This document shows positions 2,856 to 15,120 of a stretch of 17,984 nt of DNA, one piece after another. The stretch lies in the IMG/VR virus record IMGVR_UViG_2541047596_000007. The stretch is one strand, 5' to 3'. Below the pieces are notes generated by a model that had not been told where the DNA came from, ran no database searches, and was given only the letters and a program-made list of their open reading frames with translations. This DNA is from a virus (taxonomy: Duplodnaviria > Heunggongvirae > Uroviricota > Caudoviricetes). The stretch's first letter is position 1. Each line of letters starts with the position of its first letter. A program made the translations under genes and the position numbers.

Positions 2856-3074
2856 TCAAAGAGAGAGCGCCACCTGTCCTGATTTCATTGGATGCGGCTG
2901 AACCGGATTTGACTCTTTTGGCGTTGCAATCGAACGAACAAAAGTTTCATGGGTAACAAAAGTATGGCTGCAGTTAATGTTCTGGCACTGGTTGTAACGC
3001 TCTTTGGTCAATGAAGATACCTGAAAACTGCTGCGAGTATGGGCGGCACTTCCACACAGTGGGCAAATCATCAT
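2856..3074 (-). CDS. ogr: Ogr/Delta-family late transcription activator (Cys4 zinc finger)
   Basis: CPLCGSAAH...CQNINCSHTF zinc-finger pattern like P2 Ogr. Start chosen at the internal Met (MMICPLCG), preceded by GGGGAGAA on the minus strand, giving about 72 aa as in P2 Ogr. Confidence 0.8.
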   Translation of the reverse strand: MMICPLCGSAAHTRSSFQVSSLTKERYNQCQNINCSHTFVTHETFVRSIATPKESNPVQPHPMKSGQVALSL

Positions 3075-3164
3075 TTTTCGAGTTCTCCCCATTTTTGCTA
3101 AATTCACAATAATGATACCGCATTATTCCATTTTGCAAACTTAAAAGTTCTCCATTGCGAAGAA

Positions 3165-4001
3165 TCATTCCATTTCGAAATCATCAATCCTCACTTCAAG
3201 CTCCAGACTGGTCGTAAAACCATTATCCGGGCTTACGGTATGCGTCAGAGTCGTAATGGTCCATTCCGCATCATCTATCGGCTGTTTAAAGCCACTGACT
3301 TTCACTGGCATTTCCGTGTAGAGATCTGCCCGCCCTTCCGCCAGTTGTAACGAGAATGACGCAACGCCGCGTTGCAGGCGTTCCCACTGCATTTTCGCCG
3401 CTCGTTCGGCGTTGCTCCGGTTGGCATAAGTGCGATTAAGTACCAGCACGTTTTCATCCGTACCCACCAGGTAATCGCCCTGCTTCGCTTCCGGCTCTTT
3501 CTTCTGCTTCTTAGTCCTGCGCTTACGCTTCACCGTGGTGCTTTCTTTCTTCGCGGGTTCGCGGGTATGCAACCAGCTGGCAATTACGCCCGTGTAGGCT
3601 CCGCGATCTGCCAGGGTAAAGCGGTGACTGTCGCCGTCCTTACGTGTGATAGTGATAACCGGTAGTGGTTTACCGCTGGCGCTTTTACCCTGTCCCTGCC
3701 GGATGAATAACAGATTGCCATTTTTCACCGACGCAATAGCACCGTACTGGCGCGCCAGCCGCATCAGAAAACTGCCGTCACTCTCATTGGTCTGGTCTAT
3801 ATGCTCCACGGGTTTATCCGACAGGTCTTCACCCAATGCCATCTTCAGTTTGTGCCGCGCAGATATTTCCTTCACGACTTCCCCAACGGTGGTCTTGTGC
3901 CACGATTTTTCACGGCGGGTATTCAGCGTTTCACGAAAATCAGCACTTCGCGCCCGGATAGTCAGGCGGTCCGGTGCGCCAGTGTGTTCAATCTCGTCCA
4001 C
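3165..4001 (-). pseudogene. P2 gpD-like tail protein, N-terminally truncated remnant
   Basis: The 278-aa ORF (TGAPDRLTIRARSADFRETLNTRRE...DQTNESDGSFLMRLARQYGA) matches the middle and C-terminal part of P2 gpD. About 100 N-terminal residues of the roughly 387-aa protein are missing and the upstream gene U is absent. Confidence 0.7.
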
Positions 4002-4329
4002 CGTGAATGCCCCTTTCGGGAAAAGCGGCTGCCCGATGAAGCAAGCCCGCGTCGCAGCAGTGCCAGTGGTGCGCCAGCCAGCCAGGACAACGCGCTGCTG
4101 GTTCGAGTTACTGCTGCCGTAACGGAAGGTAACATTTTGATACCCAGCACAGAGAATCCCAGACGGATCACTGCCAGCGGCCCCAGCACTGCAGCCAGCG
4201 CCACCGCTAAGGTGCCGAGGCCCACGGTAACGGCAGCCACCACAGCGGCTACTTTCATCAGTGTGCCTGTCAGTTCCGGGTTAGCTTCCACCCAGCGACG
4301 CAACGCCCCTGTGACCGACGCCGCACAAA

Positions 4330-4700
4330 ACCAGGAGGATGTGAACAACCTCCGCAACGCGATGAAAAGCGCCAAAGGCCCAGGTAACTTCCGCAACCTG
4401 TTTATGTACTCGCCTAACGGCAAAAAGGACGGGCTTCAGATCATCCCGTTGTCAGAAGTCGCGGCGAAGGATGAGTTTTTGAATATCAAGAACGTGAGCC
4501 GGGATGACATGATGGCGGCGCATCGTGTGCCGCCTCAGATGATGGGGATTATGCCGAGTAATGTTGGCGGGTTTGGGGATGTGGAAAAGGCTAGTAAGGT
4601 TTTTGTAAGAAATGAAGTAATCCCCTTACAGCAAAGAATCTGTGAAATCAACCGATGGTTAAATGACGATATAATAAATTTTAAAGAATATTCGATGTAA
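4330..4700 (+). pseudogene. Phage portal protein (P2 gpQ-like), C-terminal fragment only
   Basis: The last ~120 aa of ORF 3801-4700 (FRNLFMYSPNGKKDGLQIIPLSEVAAKDEFLNIKNVSRDDMMAAHRVPPQMMGIMPSNVGGFGDVEKA) resemble the portal C-terminus. The N-terminal part of that ORF is antisense to the gpD region and not portal-like. The left boundary is approximate. Confidence 0.5.
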
Positions 4701-4732
4701 AATTAAAGAGTCTCAAATGAGACTCTTTAATT
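4701..4732. terminator. Bidirectional hairpin between portal remnant and HNH gene
   Basis: Perfect 14-bp inverted repeat AATTAAAGAGTCTC / GAGACTCTTTAATT (4701-4714 and 4719-4732) with a 4-nt loop, lying between two convergent stop codons. Confidence 0.55.
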
Positions 4733-5400
4733 TAAGGAAGCATCGTATCAAAAACATCACGCAACGCAGTAGAGAATGGTCTGGGGTCTATTTCTTTATA
4801 ATACTCGTCTCGAAGTTCGTTACGGACACTATCATCATAAAGTCCCTCTTCGATGAACTCTTCAGCTGTAGAAACAAATCTCTCTATCAATGACCATGTT
4901 TCTGATATTGCATTGATGCGCTCAGTTTTCACGCCGCCCTTTTCACCATTCAGGTTAAAAACCCTTATAGTAACCTCAGCTCTTCGCTCATCGTTTCGCG
5001 ATAACCCCGGACGAATATCCATATTTCCATTAATAGCGAAATGGAAAAAATGTGTGGGGTCATCATTATCGGCCTTGATTAGGTCTTGCTCCTGATAGCT
5101 CTGTTCATCTTTGTAAAAACCGCAGTGATTATTTTCAGCACAAGAGCCGAACAAGTTTGACCATTCAAATGTTAAATGCCTATGCTGGCTTCTACGCAAA
5201 AAATGCTCGATATGCTTATCATCACTATTGTGAATATCTATTTTCCGCTCACAATACGCACATCTCTTCCCTTGCATTTCAACTAAACCGACCCAGACTA
5301 ATTGTTTATGTCGCCGTTTAAAAGCATTCCAGTCATGAATATTGTAGTCAAACTCGGCTAAAACACCTGGACCAATGGGATTTCTAGCAAGGAATTTCAT
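4732..5400 (-). CDS. HNH endonuclease, PtuB-like retron/Septu effector
   Basis: 222 aa with an HNH signature (CAYCERKIDIHNSDDKHIEHF ... CAENNHCG). The start overlaps the upstream ATPase stop in an ATGA junction. Confidence 0.8.
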   Translation of the reverse strand: MKFLARNPIGPGVLAEFDYNIHDWNAFKRRHKQLVWVGLVEMQGKRCAYCERKIDIHNSDDKHIEHFLRRSQHRHLTFEWSNLFGSCAENNHCGFYKDEQSYQEQDLIKADNDDPTHFFHFAINGNMDIRPGLSRNDERRAEVTIRVFNLNGEKGGVKTERINAISETWSLIERFVSTAEEFIEEGLYDDSVRNELRDEYYKEIDPRPFSTALRDVFDTMLP

Positions 5401-7052
5401 TGTTTAGATTCCTTATTGCCAGACTCACCCCGCACTTTGTCTTTTAGCTTTAATACACGAATTATACCATCACACTCAAGTAATAATGGGTGATCAATTC
5501 CATAATGCTTGTCTAACTTTTTCCTTATCATTATGGCTTCCTCCGAATCCTGCTGCCTGTTTTCAATAAATTTCTTATAAGTGCTCAGCCATGCGACTTC
5601 TTTTACATTAGGTACAGGATCTGTTTTCATCCCATAAAGCAAAGCGTACGAATTCTTAGTACCTTTTGTTTGAGATGATGGTAAAAGCACACGTAATTCC
5701 TTCATGCCTGTCGAAGGGTTTTTTATTTCCTCAAGGATGCGCAAGCATTTACTTGGAACTGTCGATACAATTTGAGGGCTATGAGTGGTAATTATGAATT
5801 GTACGTTAGGAAATGTATGCTGCAATTTCTCAATAATGTTTTGCTGCCAGCTTGGGTGCAAATGAAGATCAACTTCATCAATTAATACTATACCTTTCCC
5901 TTGAAGTGGATTATTTAACTTAGGATTCAGCAACACCAAGCGTCTTGTTAAATCCCCCACTAATGTAAGTATAGTTTTCTCCCCTTGAGAGAGTTGCTGG
6001 GCATCTAATAGTAAATCATCTTTTGCTAAAACTAAACGAACTTCATTTTCAGTATATTGAAGTTCAACAGAGCTAATTTCAGGAAGGAAATTAATTATTG
6101 CCCTTTTAACATTAGCAACAATATCTTTTGAACGACTTAAACCATTTGGTGTAGACGGTAACGTATTAAGAATCAACTCTTTATTAGCAATTTGTGTTTC
6201 TATATCTATTAATGTTCTTCTATCAACATCACTGAAAGATTTCAAAACCTCCAAAGATACCTTAAGCTTTGAGATATCAATAACAAGTTGATCTCTTTGT
6301 TTTTCTGGTATCAAGGACTCCTCAGACAATGCCTTATTATTAACAAATATAAACCAATTTAAAAACTCACCGAAGTCACGGCGATCAAACTCTATATCTT
6401 CATAAGCATCAAGCTTAGTCCATCGACGCACAGAATTATTAACATTTCTTTTATTATCTATGCCTGCACCATTTGAAGATCTTGATACAGAGTAATATGC
6501 AAGAACCGGAAGGCTTACATCTTCATAATATGAATTCACAACACGAAAGAATGACGCCATCTCTTTTATAGAAAGCAACTCATTATTTCTTTTTTGTGAT
6601 ACTCCATCTTTAACACGTGTAACTAAAATATTTGACGTTATTTTTTTAAGTTTAAACTGCGCAGTTATTGCAGCATAATTGACATCATTATGATTGTTAA
6701 TATCACCATCTTTTATATGAAAACCGCTTTTATCTTCTTTTTGAACATTTGCTCTAAACCAACTTAAAGCAATAAATAATGCTTCAAGAATGGTGGTTTT
6801 ACCGTAACCATTATCACCAACAAACACTGTTAGTTTTTTGTCGATCGAAACAAAAAGATCCCTGACTCTTTTATAGTCTGAGATGGCGACTTTATTTATA
6901 AGAAATGGTGCATCTTCAATTTCCTTATATAACGAAGATACCTCTTCAGGAATGTTCTCTTTACTGAATTCTAAACCATCTTCAGTTTTATTTACATAAG
7001 ACTGCAATAATGTACGAATGTCATTTGGTGATTTAGTATACTTTGAGTTCAC
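5397..7052 (-). CDS. ABC/SMC-like ATPase, PtuA-like retron/Septu partner
   Basis: 551 aa with Walker A (GDNGYGKTT), an ABC-signature-like LSQGEK, and Walker B/H-loop (VLIDEVDLHLHP). Overlaps the RT stop and the HNH start by ATGA at both ends. Confidence 0.82.
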   Translation of the reverse strand: MNSKYTKSPNDIRTLLQSYVNKTEDGLEFSKENIPEEVSSLYKEIEDAPFLINKVAISDYKRVRDLFVSIDKKLTVFVGDNGYGKTTILEALFIALSWFRANVQKEDKSGFHIKDGDINNHNDVNYAAITAQFKLKKITSNILVTRVKDGVSQKRNNELLSIKEMASFFRVVNSYYEDVSLPVLAYYSVSRSSNGAGIDNKRNVNNSVRRWTKLDAYEDIEFDRRDFGEFLNWFIFVNNKALSEESLIPEKQRDQLVIDISKLKVSLEVLKSFSDVDRRTLIDIETQIANKELILNTLPSTPNGLSRSKDIVANVKRAIINFLPEISSVELQYTENEVRLVLAKDDLLLDAQQLSQGEKTILTLVGDLTRRLVLLNPKLNNPLQGKGIVLIDEVDLHLHPSWQQNIIEKLQHTFPNVQFIITTHSPQIVSTVPSKCLRILEEIKNPSTGMKELRVLLPSSQTKGTKNSYALLYGMKTDPVPNVKEVAWLSTYKKFIENRQQDSEEAIMIRKKLDKHYGIDHPLLLECDGIIRVLKLKDKVRGESGNKESKQ

Positions 7053-7990
7053 ATCCCCTCCTCAGAAAAAAGCGCATGTATTACTTCTTTCCCATATTTA
7101 ATTTTCATTCTAGCAATAAATTTAGGCTCTATATATAAAGCATGTCCAACAAAGCCCTTAAGGCTTATAACATCCTCTTTAGCCAGTAAGCCTAGTGTAT
7201 ATTTATGCAGCAGAGAAGAAATCATTCTCTTCTTTTGCCTACCGAGCGAAAGCTCCCCATCAACTGTTAATGTCACACCTGTCACATGTCTATTATGAGC
7301 TTTAGACGTGAATACAGTTTTAGATTCATTTAAAGATATACCTTTAGCACATAATGATAATGCAAACCTTACTACTTTCGGGACCTCAAAAAGTATATTC
7401 TTCTCATCTGTAGAAAATGTAATATCATCAGCATACCTTGAATATGAAATATTCCTAACAGAGCACCAATTGTTTATATAATTATCAAAATCATACATTA
7501 CAAAATTACTAACAAAAGGTGAGGATGGCGCCCCAACGCTCAACACGAGAGTGATACTTCTTTTTTTTCCTGGTTTCCAGAAAAGAATCCCTTCTAAAAA
7601 CTCCTTATCCTCACCTGACAAAACAACCCCTTGAGAGCGAAGTTTATCAAATAAAAGAGCCGGTTTAATTTTATTGAAGAAATTCTGAAAATCCATTTTT
7701 AAAAGATAGGAGTTTGCCATATGGATTTTGGCATTGTCCTTAATTCCTATAGAAACTTTATAAGCTTTCGCTGCATCGTGCACGATGAGCTTGGAAGCCA
7801 AAATTTTCACAACCTCACGCTGAATTCGCTTTATCTCACTCGTTGGTTGAGCAATAAGCCTGAATCCACTTTGTCGTTTAGGAATTGTGTAGACTTTATA
7901 TTTTTTAGGCGCAACACTCGATAACCGCCTCAGCTCGTTAACGTTTACTCCAAGTTCTTTGCTAACAGCCGATAAAATTTCCATAAACAT
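7049..7990 (-). CDS. Retron-type reverse transcriptase
   Basis: 313 aa with RT motifs: LKMDFQNFF (motif A), GAPSSPFVSN (motif B) and RYADDITFS (YADD catalytic motif C). Its size and the adjacent structured ncRNA fit a retron RT. Confidence 0.88.
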   Translation of the reverse strand: MFMEILSAVSKELGVNVNELRRLSSVAPKKYKVYTIPKRQSGFRLIAQPTSEIKRIQREVVKILASKLIVHDAAKAYKVSIGIKDNAKIHMANSYLLKMDFQNFFNKIKPALLFDKLRSQGVVLSGEDKEFLEGILFWKPGKKRSITLVLSVGAPSSPFVSNFVMYDFDNYINNWCSVRNISYSRYADDITFSTDEKNILFEVPKVVRFALSLCAKGISLNESKTVFTSKAHNRHVTGVTLTVDGELSLGRQKKRMISSLLHKYTLGLLAKEDVISLKGFVGHALYIEPKFIARMKIKYGKEVIHALFSEEGM

Positions 7991-8270
7991 TCCGCTTGTG
8001 AGGCCCGCTTGCGCGGGCCGAGCTCTTCACTAAAGACAGCGAAAGCGACGAATTCCGCCTTCGTAAACTATGGCAACAGCCATAGGATGCGAAGGCGGAA
8101 TTCGTCGCTTTCGCAACCCTAAACTGAGCAATAAATTAGAGCCTGGCTTATCGCCCGGCTAGAACGCAATGGTTCCCTAACGCTAAAGAGCATAGGAATA
8201 CTAATGTTGCAACGAACAAATAGCAAGCCGGGCGCGCGCTCGTATCCCCGCCACGCCTGCCCGCTTTATG
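7991..8270 (-). ncRNA. Retron msr-msd non-coding RNA (boundaries approximate)
   Basis: Non-coding GC-rich region immediately upstream of the RT on the same strand. It contains the long msd hairpin (8039-8114), a 7-bp hairpin GGCCCGC-TTGC-GCGGGCC (8002-8019) and a long-range complement CGCCCGGCT (8152-8160) / AGCCGGGCG (8226-8234). I could not identify a1/a2 by eye. Confidence 0.55.
8039..8114 (-). repeat. msd stem-loop: perfect 25-bp inverted repeat
   Basis: GCGAAAGCGACGAATTCCGCCTTCG (8039-8063) is the exact reverse complement of CGAAGGCGGAATTCGTCGCTTTCGC (8090-8114). The 26-nt loop holds an inner 6-bp palindrome CTATGG/CCATAG (8068-8073 and 8080-8085). Confidence 0.85.
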
Positions 8271-8300
8271 TAGTGGTTTTCATGCACCTGCATGATCTAC

Positions 8301-8326
8301 GCAAAAGCCCGCCAGTTCTGGCAGGC
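8301..8326 (-). terminator. Candidate rho-independent terminator after the DinI-like operon
   Basis: On the minus strand, GCCUGCCAG-AAC-CUGGCGGGC forms a 9-bp stem with one G-U pair, followed by UUUUGC. Confidence 0.35.
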
Positions 8327-8460
8327 CTTAGCAAAAACGATCCTCAAACGATCATGCGATCTCATGCGGCATAGACATGCACCACAGAGCTAACGCCTCG
8401 CACAGCTCGTTGTTCAACCTTGCTGACGCCAGAAGCAAGTTCAGACGCCAGCAGCGTTTC

Positions 8461-11461: not shown

Positions 11462-12315
11462 ACACGCACCTCGTACACAGCAGAACTATCTACGCCACGC
11501 GAAGGATCAAATCCCACCCAGCAGCGCGCCCCGGAAACAGCAATGATTTCTGTTGCAGATTTACTATCACCAGCTGCCACACCGATGCTGCGTTTTGCCT
11601 TGATGTAGTGGTGAGTAAAATTGCGATACAGCGAACGGATCAGGGATGTGTCACTGTTAGAAACAATGACCGGATGTCCTTCTGATGACCGATGTTCAAG
11701 AACGGATGCCAGGTGATACTGGTCATCTTCAGTGAAACCATCAGTGTGATAGCCGGAAAACGTACCGTCATACGGCGGATCGCAATACACCACATCCCCC
11801 GCCTTCAACATCGCCAGCGTTTCATCAAAGTTGGCGCAGATAAACGTTGCCCGCTGGGCTTTCTCTGCAAATGCGCGAATTTCTTTTTCAGGGAAATACG
11901 GATTTTTATAATTACCGTAGGGAATGTTGAAATACCCGCTCTTGTTATAGCGACATAACCCACGGTAACCATGACGATTGAGATACAGAAAATATACCGA
12001 TTTCATGAAATCAGTAATTTCAGTGGAGTAATTAAACTCCTGCCTTATGTTGTAATAAGCCACCTCCCTGTTTGCTTCCTCAAATAAAGCTCTGGCACGA
12101 GATATAAACGCCTCACAATCAGCAGCAACCTTTTTATAGAGGTTGATTAAATCAGGATTAATATCCGCAACAAGATAGCTGGGGTAATCCGTCTCCATCA
12201 TCACTGCACAGGAACCCGCGAAAGGTTCAACCAGTCGCGGGCCAGCAGGAAGATGCTTTTTCAATTCGGACATTATGGCGGTTTTATTTCCCGCCCATTT
12301 CAGGATGGTGCTCAT
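11458..12315 (-). CDS. Dam-type DNA N6-adenine methyltransferase
   Basis: SAM-binding motif I (EPFAGSCAV) and catalytic DPPY ([10 protein letters not shown]). Start taken at [11 protein letters not shown], preceded by GGAGGTG; the ORF track's longer N-terminus is probably not translated. Confidence 0.85.
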
Positions 12316-14241: not shown

Positions 14242-15120
14242 ATGAATTTCAAAAACGGAGGACAGGCAGTCATAAAGCGCATGCTTGAAGCGTATGGATT
14301 CAAGACGCGGCAAGCCCTATGTGAACAGTTCAATGTATCTGCAAGTACTATGGGAACGCGCTGGATGCGTGACGCATTTCCTGCTGACTGGGTAATTCAG
14401 TGTGCAATTGAAACAGGAGCATCTATAGAGTGGCTCTCATTCGGAAAAGGCGTGCCATTTCCTAAGAATACCGAAGTTCCCGCTAAATTAGAGGAACCAG
14501 CATCATTGGTTCAATATGTTCCCAAAGCCACCACCAACGAGAACCCAATTGTGAACCATCCAAATCTGGATTCAGGTGGACGTAATGCGATAAACAGGCT
14601 AATGGAAGCGTATGGCTTTAAAACAAGACAAGAACTTGCCGACCATTTGAATGTGTCTAAAAGCACAATGGCGAATAGATACTTGCGAGACACATTCCCA
14701 GCTGACTGGATCATAAGATGCTCGTTGGAAACAAGAACTTCTCTTTTATGGTTAGCAACTGGGCGCGGGCAAAAACTTGGAAGCGAAGAAAGTGAAGCTT
14801 TAGAAATTCCTAAAGTAAAACTTATTGACAATCAAATTTTCGATGCTGGTCATTTATTGATAGATAAGTCCCTGCTTCCTCATTTTAATGATTTACTCGC
14901 AATTGAAGACGAACATTGCATAAATATTGCACACATGAATAAAGCTAATGTTGAAGACGGAAGATGGATTGTTCAATACCAAAATAATTTCAAGTTAAAA
15001 CAAATTTTTCTATTACCTGGAGGCAATCTTCGAGTAACAGACGATGATTTAACATTTGATTGTGAAAAAGAAGATATAAAATTAGTTGCCAAAATTTTCT
15101 CACAGTACCGTACTATTTAA
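14242..15120 (+). CDS. CI-like repressor with tandemly duplicated N-terminal CI-type HTH domains
   Basis: 292 aa. Residues ~5-70 (RMLEAYGFKTRQALCEQFNVSASTMGTRWMRDAFPADWVIQCAIETGASIEWL) and ~111-176 (RLMEAYGFKTRQELADHLNVSKSTMANRYLRDTFPADWIIRCSLETRTSLLWL) are homologous copies of the phage CI-repressor HTH fold, followed by a distinct ~115-aa C-terminal domain. Confidence 0.72.
   Translation: MNFKNGGQAVIKRMLEAYGFKTRQALCEQFNVSASTMGTRWMRDAFPADWVIQCAIETGASIEWLSFGKGVPFPKNTEVPAKLEEPASLVQYVPKATTNENPIVNHPNLDSGGRNAINRLMEAYGFKTRQELADHLNVSKSTMANRYLRDTFPADWIIRCSLETRTSLLWLATGRGQKLGSEESEALEIPKVKLIDNQIFDAGHLLIDKSLLPHFNDLLAIEDEHCINIAHMNKANVEDGRWIVQYQNNFKLKQIFLLPGGNLRVTDDDLTFDCEKEDIKLVAKIFSQYRTI

Follow-up and report, generated by a model that had tools for sequence, protein, structure and literature searches.

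The long hairpin at positions 8039 to 8114 of the window (the whole stretch of DNA analysed here, 17,984 nucleotides) is very probably the msd stem of the non-coding RNA (ncRNA) of an intact type I-A (Septu-associated) retron, read on the minus strand. By analogy with studied homologues, its likely role is that of a DNA hairpin scaffold, which would sequester PtuAB until a phage nuclease destroys the hairpin. The retron is a conventional member of type I-A, and is neither Ec78 nor FORC82. An earlier note on this DNA had proposed that the hairpin, lying just upstream of the gene for a retron reverse transcriptase (RT), was the msd template, and this proposal is supported here by a match to msr, by the a1/a2 repeats, by a priming G and by the covariation of the stem.

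8039 to 8114, minus strand: msd stem-loop, based on repeat search, folding and covariation of the homologous helix

What the note had described, a perfect 25-bp inverted repeat with a 26-nt loop, was confirmed: the arms, 8039-8063 (GCGAAAGCGACGAATTCCGCCTTCG) and 8090-8114 (CGAAGGCGGAATTCGTCGCTTTCGC), are exact reverse complements of 25 nt each, with 26 nt between them. The nested palindrome reported within this loop also exists, but it was counted as 7 bp (8068-8074, CTATGGC, with 8079-8085, GCCATAG, around a 4-nt loop) and not as the 6 bp given before. Between the outer and inner stems lies a 4 x 4 internal loop with one or two extra pairs. In a repeat search of the window, the arms extended to 36 nt with 92% complementarity and 4 nt between them; the whole hairpin comprises about 34 pairs over 76 nt, which is far beyond chance. 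With up to 3 mismatches allowed, the 25-mer has no occurrence in the window other than these two, and it was found in none of 200 shuffles. Folding energies, suggested earlier as a check, pointed the same way. As single-stranded DNA, the 76-nt region gave -43.3 kcal/mol against -10.9 +/- 2.5 for shuffled sequences (z = -12.8; none of 200 as good), the predicted full msDNA gave z = -13.7, and the 170-nt ncRNA folded as RNA gave -88.8 kcal/mol (z = -8.5). The hairpin is predicted to form in the ncRNA (minus strand) as well as in its cDNA product (plus-strand sequence).

The RT open-reading frame begins 48 nt past the hairpin, and is followed by those of two effectors.

7049 to 7990, minus strand: retron RT, 313 amino acids from 7990 or 311 amino acids from the ATG at 7984 (RefSeq)
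5397 to 7052, minus strand: PtuA-type SMC/ABC ATPase effector, 551 amino acids
4732 to 5400, minus strand: PtuB-type HNH nuclease effector, 222 amino acids

The frames overlap by 4 nt at both junctions (7052/7049 for RT and PtuA, and 5400/5397 for PtuA and PtuB). The RT matched Pfam RVT_1, PADLOC RT_I-A (3.4e-131) and NCBIfam retron_St85_RT (309.5 bits, cut-off 235), and contains the motifs YADD (SRYADDITFS) and VTG (RHVTGVTLT); its best PDB match was 9n69_E (376 bits), and it is 56% identical to the RT of FORC82. The ATPase has a Walker A motif (GDNGYGKTT), a signature motif (LSQGEKT) and a Walker B motif (VLIDEVDLHLHP), and matched PADLOC PtuA (2.7e-181), ATPase_I-A (1.8e-155) and PDB 9n69_A (532 bits), with 47% identity to FORC82; its score against the NCBIfam PtuA model, 460.7, was under the cut-off of 500. 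In the HNH protein, the CxxC...HxEH region is present, and matches were found to PADLOC PtuB (6.9e-114), HNH_I-A (2.5e-55) and PDB 9n69_F (240 bits), with 49% identity to FORC82. Type I-A retron complexes account for all of the best-scoring solved relatives, namely FORC82 (9n69), Ec83 (9e8z) and Ec78 (9l7p and 9vhe). An operon comprising an RT, a PtuA ATPase and a PtuB HNH nuclease identifies a type I-A retron, a class (retron-Septu) that is reportedly due to Mestre et al. 2020.

All parts of the retron are read on the minus strand. The ncRNA spans 8191-8022 (170 nt), in the order a1, priming G, two msr stem-loops, conserved linker, long msd stem and a2.

8198 to 8226, minus strand: candidate sigma-70 promoter of the ncRNA/retron operon
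8184 to 8191, minus strand: a1 inverted repeat (GCUCUUUA), pairing with a2 over 8 bp
8183, minus strand: predicted priming (branching) guanosine, the G after UUA
8123 to 8191, minus strand: msr, Rfam RF00170
8176 to 8161, minus strand: msr hairpin 1, from the ncRNA fold
8160 to 8140, minus strand: msr hairpin 2, from the ncRNA fold
8022 to 8029, minus strand: a2 inverted repeat (UGAAGAGC), pairing with a1
8001 to 8018, minus strand: short GC hairpin (GGCCCGC-GCAA-GCGGGCC), located after a2 and before the RT start

The msr matched the full Rfam model (1-69) with 55.1 bits (gathering score 52; E = 1.4e-8). It adjoins the hairpin on its 5' side, 8 nt apart and on the same strand as the RT. When exactly 8191-8022 was folded, the a1/a2 stem, the two msr hairpins and the msd stem (8114-8039) were all recovered, with a single-stranded linker between msr and msd. 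The predicted priming G8183, position 9 of this RNA, adjoins the a1/a2 stem, is unpaired in both the MFE and centroid structures, is invariant in an alignment of 13 ncRNAs, and is the counterpart of the priming G8 in the FORC82 ncRNA. The same alignment contains an invariant AA.TTATTG block in msr, the last base of which is G8129 in the window. The candidate promoter, read from the sequence, is a weak one (8 of 12 positions matching) and consists of a -35 box TTGCTA (8226-8221), a 17-nt spacer, a -10 box TAGTAT (8203-8198) and 6 nt to G8191; the same geometry is seen in FORC82 (TTGCCT/17/TAAAAT/6/G) and in 23CRST038 (TTGCCA/17/TAGACT/6/G). A consensus promoter scan gave no site at its threshold. 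Relatives have a terminator-like hairpin and a T-run between a2 and the RT, whereas the hairpin at 8001-8018 lacks the T-run. The Rfam matches to miRNA, CRISPR-DR and snoRNA families were far below the gathering scores and were rejected as generic long-hairpin matches. The Rfam family STnc400 (RF02058) matches the msd of more distant relatives and not the window, because the stem sequence differs.

The inverted repeat might instead be an intrinsic terminator or attenuator, serving either the upstream DinI-like gene or the ncRNA-RT interval, and not a template for reverse transcription. Such a reading is very improbable. A terminator scan did give two minus-strand sites (8063-8040 and 8059-8038) in the left arm and its flank, followed by CTGTCTTTAG; however, these are only minor sub-stems within the arm, their T tract is poor, and the DinI-like gene (8766-8461) has a classic terminator of its own at about 8300-8330 (GCCTGCCAGAACTGGCGGGCTTTTG on the minus strand). 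Moreover, the 34-bp stem is far longer than terminators, and lies between msr and a2, as it does in retrons from which msDNA has been purified.

Relatives of the locus were gathered from three sources: species-representative genomes, in which 12 loci matched the RT and nine, at 45-55% identity, were used; complete E. coli genomes, which supplied further loci (FORC_082, 23CRST038 and an Ec78-type locus); and 2.9 million IMG/VR viral contigs, which were scanned with a pattern made from the conserved stem base. The layout a1, G, msr, TTATTG, linker, long hairpin, a2, small hairpin and RT, including the Rfam msr, was found in every locus with enough upstream sequence, and is common to 13 related loci ranging from E. 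coli to Pseudomonas, Shewanella and Methylococcaceae. RNAalifold recognized four helices in the alignment of the 13 ncRNAs, with compensatory changes in 24 of 40 pairs. The a1/a2 helix is kept in all 13 (99% of cells paired); of the 21 pairs in the msd helix, 19 vary on both sides, and 91.9% of its cells are paired. Taken over the whole structure, the proportion of paired cells is 93.8%, as compared with 37-42% when the partners are slid by 1-3 columns, and the covariation score is 0.522, against 0.05-0.11 for the slid alignments; none of 500 shuffles reached it. Among six variants of a close, P2-borne E. coli sub-family (the window, FORC82, 23CRST038 and three more loci, L020, L021 and L022), there is no variation in the stem base GCGAAAG/CTTTCGC or in either flank, and the stem interiors differ and stay self-complementary. 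Since the interior varies yet remains self-complementary, the msd stem is selected as a structure and not as a sequence, as is expected of an msd. The stem sequence seems free to drift provided that it still pairs and keeps its length.

The hairpin is long, perfect and palindrome-like, belongs to a mobile element and contains two EcoRI sites (GAATTC, at 8049-8054 and 8099-8104), and may therefore also call to mind a dispersed repeat of palindromic type (REP/BIME, MITE or IS end), or one of the palindromes (operator, ori or cos) to which proteins bind in P2-like phages. We consider this the least credible of the explanations weighed here. That the arms covary instead of being conserved indicates a structure rather than a sequence-specific binding site. 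According to the earlier note, the msd assignment would have to be abandoned if the hairpin belonged to an unrelated repeat family with members elsewhere in the genome; the hairpin is, however, single-copy in the window and in its carriers. The 311-nt ncRNA region was found in two of 5426 complete E. coli genomes, in one copy each, and was absent from the other 5424. In the scan of 2.9 million viral contigs, the family occurred only upstream of retron RTs, and the stem sequence of the window was never found.

The retron cassette, with approximate bounds of 4732 and 8232, has a portal-gene fragment on one side and a DinI-like gene, followed by gpA, on the other; it belongs to a P2-like prophage integrated next to ybjL in E. 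coli. FORC82 has its P2-like prophage next to ybjL as well, and the slot between the DinI-like gene/gpA and the portal gene is occupied by other type I-A retrons in FORC82 and in 23CRST038. The flank common to the window, FORC82 and 23CRST038 runs up to ...GAGCGCGCGC, ending about 40 nt upstream of a1. Retrons are counted among the cargo of the P2 defence hotspot by Rousset et al. 2022 (PMC9122126). From the fixed slot, the conserved flanks and the different systems in different phages, all read from sequence comparison, the present cassette is defence hotspot cargo of a P2-like prophage.

The prophage itself has decayed: almost all of its structural genes are lost, and a truncated gpD abuts the portal fragment. 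Because of this decay, expression of the retron is not guaranteed. One may therefore ask whether the hairpin is an msd by descent only, in a retron that has become a silent relic, making no msDNA and having no current function. The decay, the failure to find a strong promoter, and the occurrence of the ncRNA in just two complete E. coli genomes favor such a relic, which we nevertheless regard as improbable. All three ORFs are full length in comparison with solved homologues and their catalytic motifs are intact, and the a1/a2 repeats and the priming G are preserved, as is the 25-bp stem, which is free of mismatches. About 100 contigs carry the identical RT protein, and variants of at least 90% identity occur in other genera (Pluralibacter, Cedecea and Klebsiella), a spread that points to maintenance and transfer. 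In three strains with different prophage deletions, the cassette was kept at 99.9% identity. By analogy with FORC82 and Ec78, a silent RT/ncRNA beside an active PtuAB should furthermore be toxic. No close relative of the RT was found in the GenBank phage collection, where the best match was 46% identical, and a literature search on the RefSeq accessions found no paper.

For the intact retron that we prefer, the ends of the msDNA can be predicted by alignment with Ec78, in which cryo-EM showed msDNA residues dA69-dC77 paired with rG59-rU67, and dC65-dC77 visible in a second class (PMC12819146). According to the mapping rule taken from Ec78, the template starts with the G of UUAUUG and extends to the base that precedes the 3' end of a2 by 9 nt.

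8031 to 8129, minus strand: predicted msd template, with ends transferred by alignment from the Ec78 cryo-EM structure (PMC12819146)
8121 to 8129, minus strand: predicted termination segment (GCUCAGUUU), from Ec78 rG59-rU67 paired with dA69-dC77

Applied to the Ec78-type locus (L016), the rule yields a 77-nt DNA with T1, A4, C65 and AATACGTTC at 69-77, which agrees with the published dT1, dA4, dC65 and dA69-dC77. The lengths obtained are as follows.

Ec78-type locus L016: predicted 77 nt; 73 nt when trimmed; residues agree with PMC12819146
FORC82: predicted 96 nt; 92 nt after a 4-nt trim; measured as "~90 nt" (PMC12475279)
Window: predicted 99 nt (8031-8129); 95 nt after a 4-nt trim (from 8035)

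The msDNA is accordingly predicted, on the model of Ec78, to be the plus strand from 8031 to 8129, beginning TAAAGACAGCG and ending AACCCTAAACTGAGC, with CTGAGC as its last letters; should ExoVII trim 4 nt from its start, as happens in Ec78, the 5' end of the mature form would lie at 8035. The predicted molecule folds into a hairpin with tails of 8 nt (5') and 15 nt (3'), and the 76-nt hairpin would thus be the core of a longer msd. Because the predicted msDNA is 99 nt, the closeness of the 76-nt span to the size of the msDNA named for Ec78, remarked upon in the note, is a coincidence.

The nearest characterized relative is the type I-A retron of FORC_082 (PDB 9n69, 9n6b and 9n6c; PMC12475279), which is the best PDB match for all three proteins and has the same order of ncRNA, RT, ATPase and HNH. 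The two ncRNAs share their layout, the stem base GCGAAAG...CTTTCGC, the 5' msDNA flank (TAAAGACAGCG) and the context of a2. However, the stem interior and tip differ, with many paired positions changed; the first msr hairpin is larger in the window, the ncRNA is 170 nt as opposed to 163 nt, and the predicted msDNA is 99 nt as opposed to 96 nt. An allelic relationship with FORC82 was rejected on account of the differing stem interior and of the protein identities (56% for RT, 47% for ATPase and 49% for HNH).

Ec78 (Retron-Eco7; PDB 9l7p, 9vhe and 9kjx; PMC12819146, PMC12804668, PMC12673091) is also of type I-A, with PtuA/PtuB and 8-nt a1/a2 repeats, and its msDNA hairpin is the spine of a 4:2:1 PtuA:PtuB:RT complex (PMC12819146, PMC12804668, PMC12673091). 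Its ncRNA is 144 nt, with a 22-bp stem and an msDNA of 77-78 nt, whereas the window has 170 nt, 25 perfect bp (about 34 in all) and a predicted 99 nt. The Ec78-type RT is 44% identical to that of the window, and the Ec78 chains scored lower in PDB than those of FORC82 for the RT (281 vs 376 bits), PtuA (264 vs 532) and PtuB (107 vs 240). The Ec78-type locus L016 is in a different genomic context, not P2. Identity with Ec78 was rejected from the protein identities and the lengths of the ncRNA and predicted msDNA. In automatic annotation, labels are given to the proteins alone ("retron St85 family RT", "AAA family ATPase" and "retron Ec78 PtuB"), and no feature marks the ncRNA; the wording "Ec78" in RefSeq does not mean identity, since the NCBIfam PtuB model of that name was passed by only 1.3 bits (151.3 bits, cut-off 150). 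Ec83 (Retron-Eco4; PDB 9e8z), with a type I-A RT (286 bits) and ATPase (213 bits), is more distant than FORC82. The stand-alone Septu PtuAB (PDB 8ee4) has an ATPase homologous over the C-terminal half (135.6 bits) and a homologous HNH partner, but is without RT, ncRNA and msDNA, and its control is protein-based and not exerted via a DNA hairpin.

A mechanism can be transferred from homologues with 44-56% identity in the RT and 47-49% identity in the effectors. In both Ec78 and FORC82, the RT holds the msr and makes msDNA, and the template is removed by RNase H (PMC12819146, PMC12475279); the Ec78 msDNA is additionally debranched (PMC12819146). By analogy, the RT of the window would bind msr, prime on the 2'-OH of G8183, and copy the RNA from 8031 towards 8129, stopping after the G of UUAUUG, and RNase H would remove the copied RNA. 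ExoVII would probably trim 4 nt and debranch the product, and the cDNA of about 95-99 nt would refold into the same hairpin of about 34 bp.

In Ec78 and FORC82, a hairpin spine of about 110 Å binds four PtuA with PtuB and keeps the nuclease inactive (PMC12819146, PMC12475279). The DNA hairpin of the window may likewise be a spine for four PtuA plus PtuB subunits, holding them inactive. The tip of the FORC82 hairpin is disordered, and truncation of its loop left defence unaffected (PMC12475279), which suggests that the nested 7-bp stem of the window is not critical and fits the high variability of the tip.

The trigger of Ec78, known from phage escape mutants, is the D15 DNase (PMC12819146, PMC12475279), and FORC82 is triggered by flap nucleases or exonucleases of T3, T5 (D15) and T7, which were shown to degrade its msDNA (PMC12475279). 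On infection, a phage flap nuclease or exonuclease would similarly degrade the msDNA of the window, and so release PtuAB. The activated systems deplete tRNA-Tyr (Ec78) or tRNA-Ser (FORC82), with growth arrest (PMC12819146, PMC12475279), and the released PtuAB may correspondingly deplete a host tRNA and abort the infection. This step is the least certain of the mechanism, because the papers on Ec78 and on FORC82 differ as to what PtuAB acts on directly, with DNA nicking in vitro on one side and tRNA loss in vivo on the other, and with tRNA-Tyr as against tRNA-Ser.

The current understanding of retrons is not challenged by this locus, and the gain for annotation is that the hairpin, msr, a1/a2 repeats and priming G can now be marked precisely. 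The nearest studied system is only 47-56% identical in its proteins, and the predicted msDNA hairpin of the window (about 99 nt and 34 bp) is the longest of the ncRNAs compared. It is conceivable, though we put it forward tentatively and think it somewhat doubtful, that the retron represents a distinct, unnamed type I-A lineage, which could sense another phage trigger or deplete another tRNA than Ec78 or FORC82 does, and the long and perfectly paired msd of which might provide a useful donor scaffold for retron editing. In short, with this locus the small series of E. coli type I-A retrons from the P2 hotspot, which have a common ncRNA frame, swapped stem interiors and diverged effectors, gains one more natural variant. 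This series may be used to ask what sets the tolerance for msDNA length, the range of triggers and the tRNA specificity.

The hexamer GAATTC lies in both arms of the msd stem of the window (8049-8054 and 8099-8104), and a double-stranded EcoRI site is therefore expected in the stem of the folded msDNA. This site, which is probably incidental, would be convenient for experimental mapping of the msDNA. The close sub-family to which the window belongs comprises at least six stem variants in a constant frame. One of these, from the compared locus L022, differs in the interior of its stem and has a first msr hairpin that is longer:

IMGVR_UViG_2671181079_000002 (a 40-kb viral contig), 12091-12284: ncRNA variant of 168 nt

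In seven other compared loci, L006-L011 (at about 1380-1510) and L002, the Rfam family RF02058 ("STnc400 gammaproteobacterial sRNA") matches directly after the msr. Scores in the more distant relatives were 36.7-67.7 bits, below the gathering score of 80, and the matched stretch in distant relatives is the retron msd hairpin. Because RF02058 falls on this hairpin, the family appears to represent the msd of St85-type retrons and not a separate sRNA.

Three features of the window flank or overlap the ncRNA:

8198-8226, minus strand: weak promoter-like element, positionally conserved with the cassettes of L014 and L015
8001-8018, minus strand: GC-rich hairpin GGCCCGC-GCAA-GCGGGCC, after a2 and before the start codon of the RT
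8152-8160 and 8226-8234: perfect 9-bp inverted repeat (CGCCCGGCT / AGCCGGGCG), found by repeat search

The three cassettes, all different, share the layout of the promoter-like element (-35 TTGCyw, 17 nt, -10 TAnnnT, 6 nt, and then the first G of a1), and its -35 sits exactly where the conserved phage backbone (...GAGCGCGCGC) meets the variable cassette. A consensus promoter scan did not call the element at 8198-8226. One arm of the 9-bp repeat is in the second msr hairpin and the other is just upstream of the proposed -35. In a longer transcript the repeat competes against the msr fold; if transcription begins at about 8191, the repeat is irrelevant. On the other side of the ncRNA, the site of the GC-rich hairpin is occupied in most relatives by a hairpin followed by a T-run, an arrangement that resembles an attenuator and would tilt the output to ncRNA over RT mRNA. 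The hairpin of the window has no T-run.

Two further stretches of the prophage concern the repressor and its neighbors:

14242-15120, plus strand: CI-type repressor ORF, 292 aa
15136-16841, plus strand: two overlapping ORFs (342 and 226 aa), flanked by the genes for the CI repressor and the integrase

The Phage_CI_repr HTH domain was matched at two stretches of the 292-aa ORF, whereas CI is annotated with 189 aa in strains M37H and AREA_497, which carry the same retron. The longer ORF has either a duplicated N-terminal HTH or a start that is placed too far upstream. The two overlapping ORFs had no match in Pfam, PADLOC or NCBIfam, and just 13 genomes among the 5426 complete ones of E. coli contain the stretch, which is annotated as "hypothetical protein (x2)". 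In M37H and AREA_497 this position is occupied by just a small YdcA-like gene. The two ORFs could be cargo in a second variable prophage slot, such as a defence or exclusion pair not yet described.

The following remnants of the P2-like prophage were recognized within 2856-4731:

2856-3107: ogr
3165-4001: truncated gpD, adjoining the portal-gene fragment
3801-4700: portal-gene fragment

The prophage is heavily decayed and, since the truncated gpD lies next to a portal-gene fragment, has lost nearly all of its structural genes. The retrons of M37H and AREA_497 are 99.9% identical to that of the window; the deletion breakpoints differ. M37H keeps a full gpD, a terminase fragment and an intact portal gene, and AREA_497 has a baseplate V fragment and a portal fragment, with tail genes present. 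The retron cassette seems to be kept while the prophage around it erodes independently.
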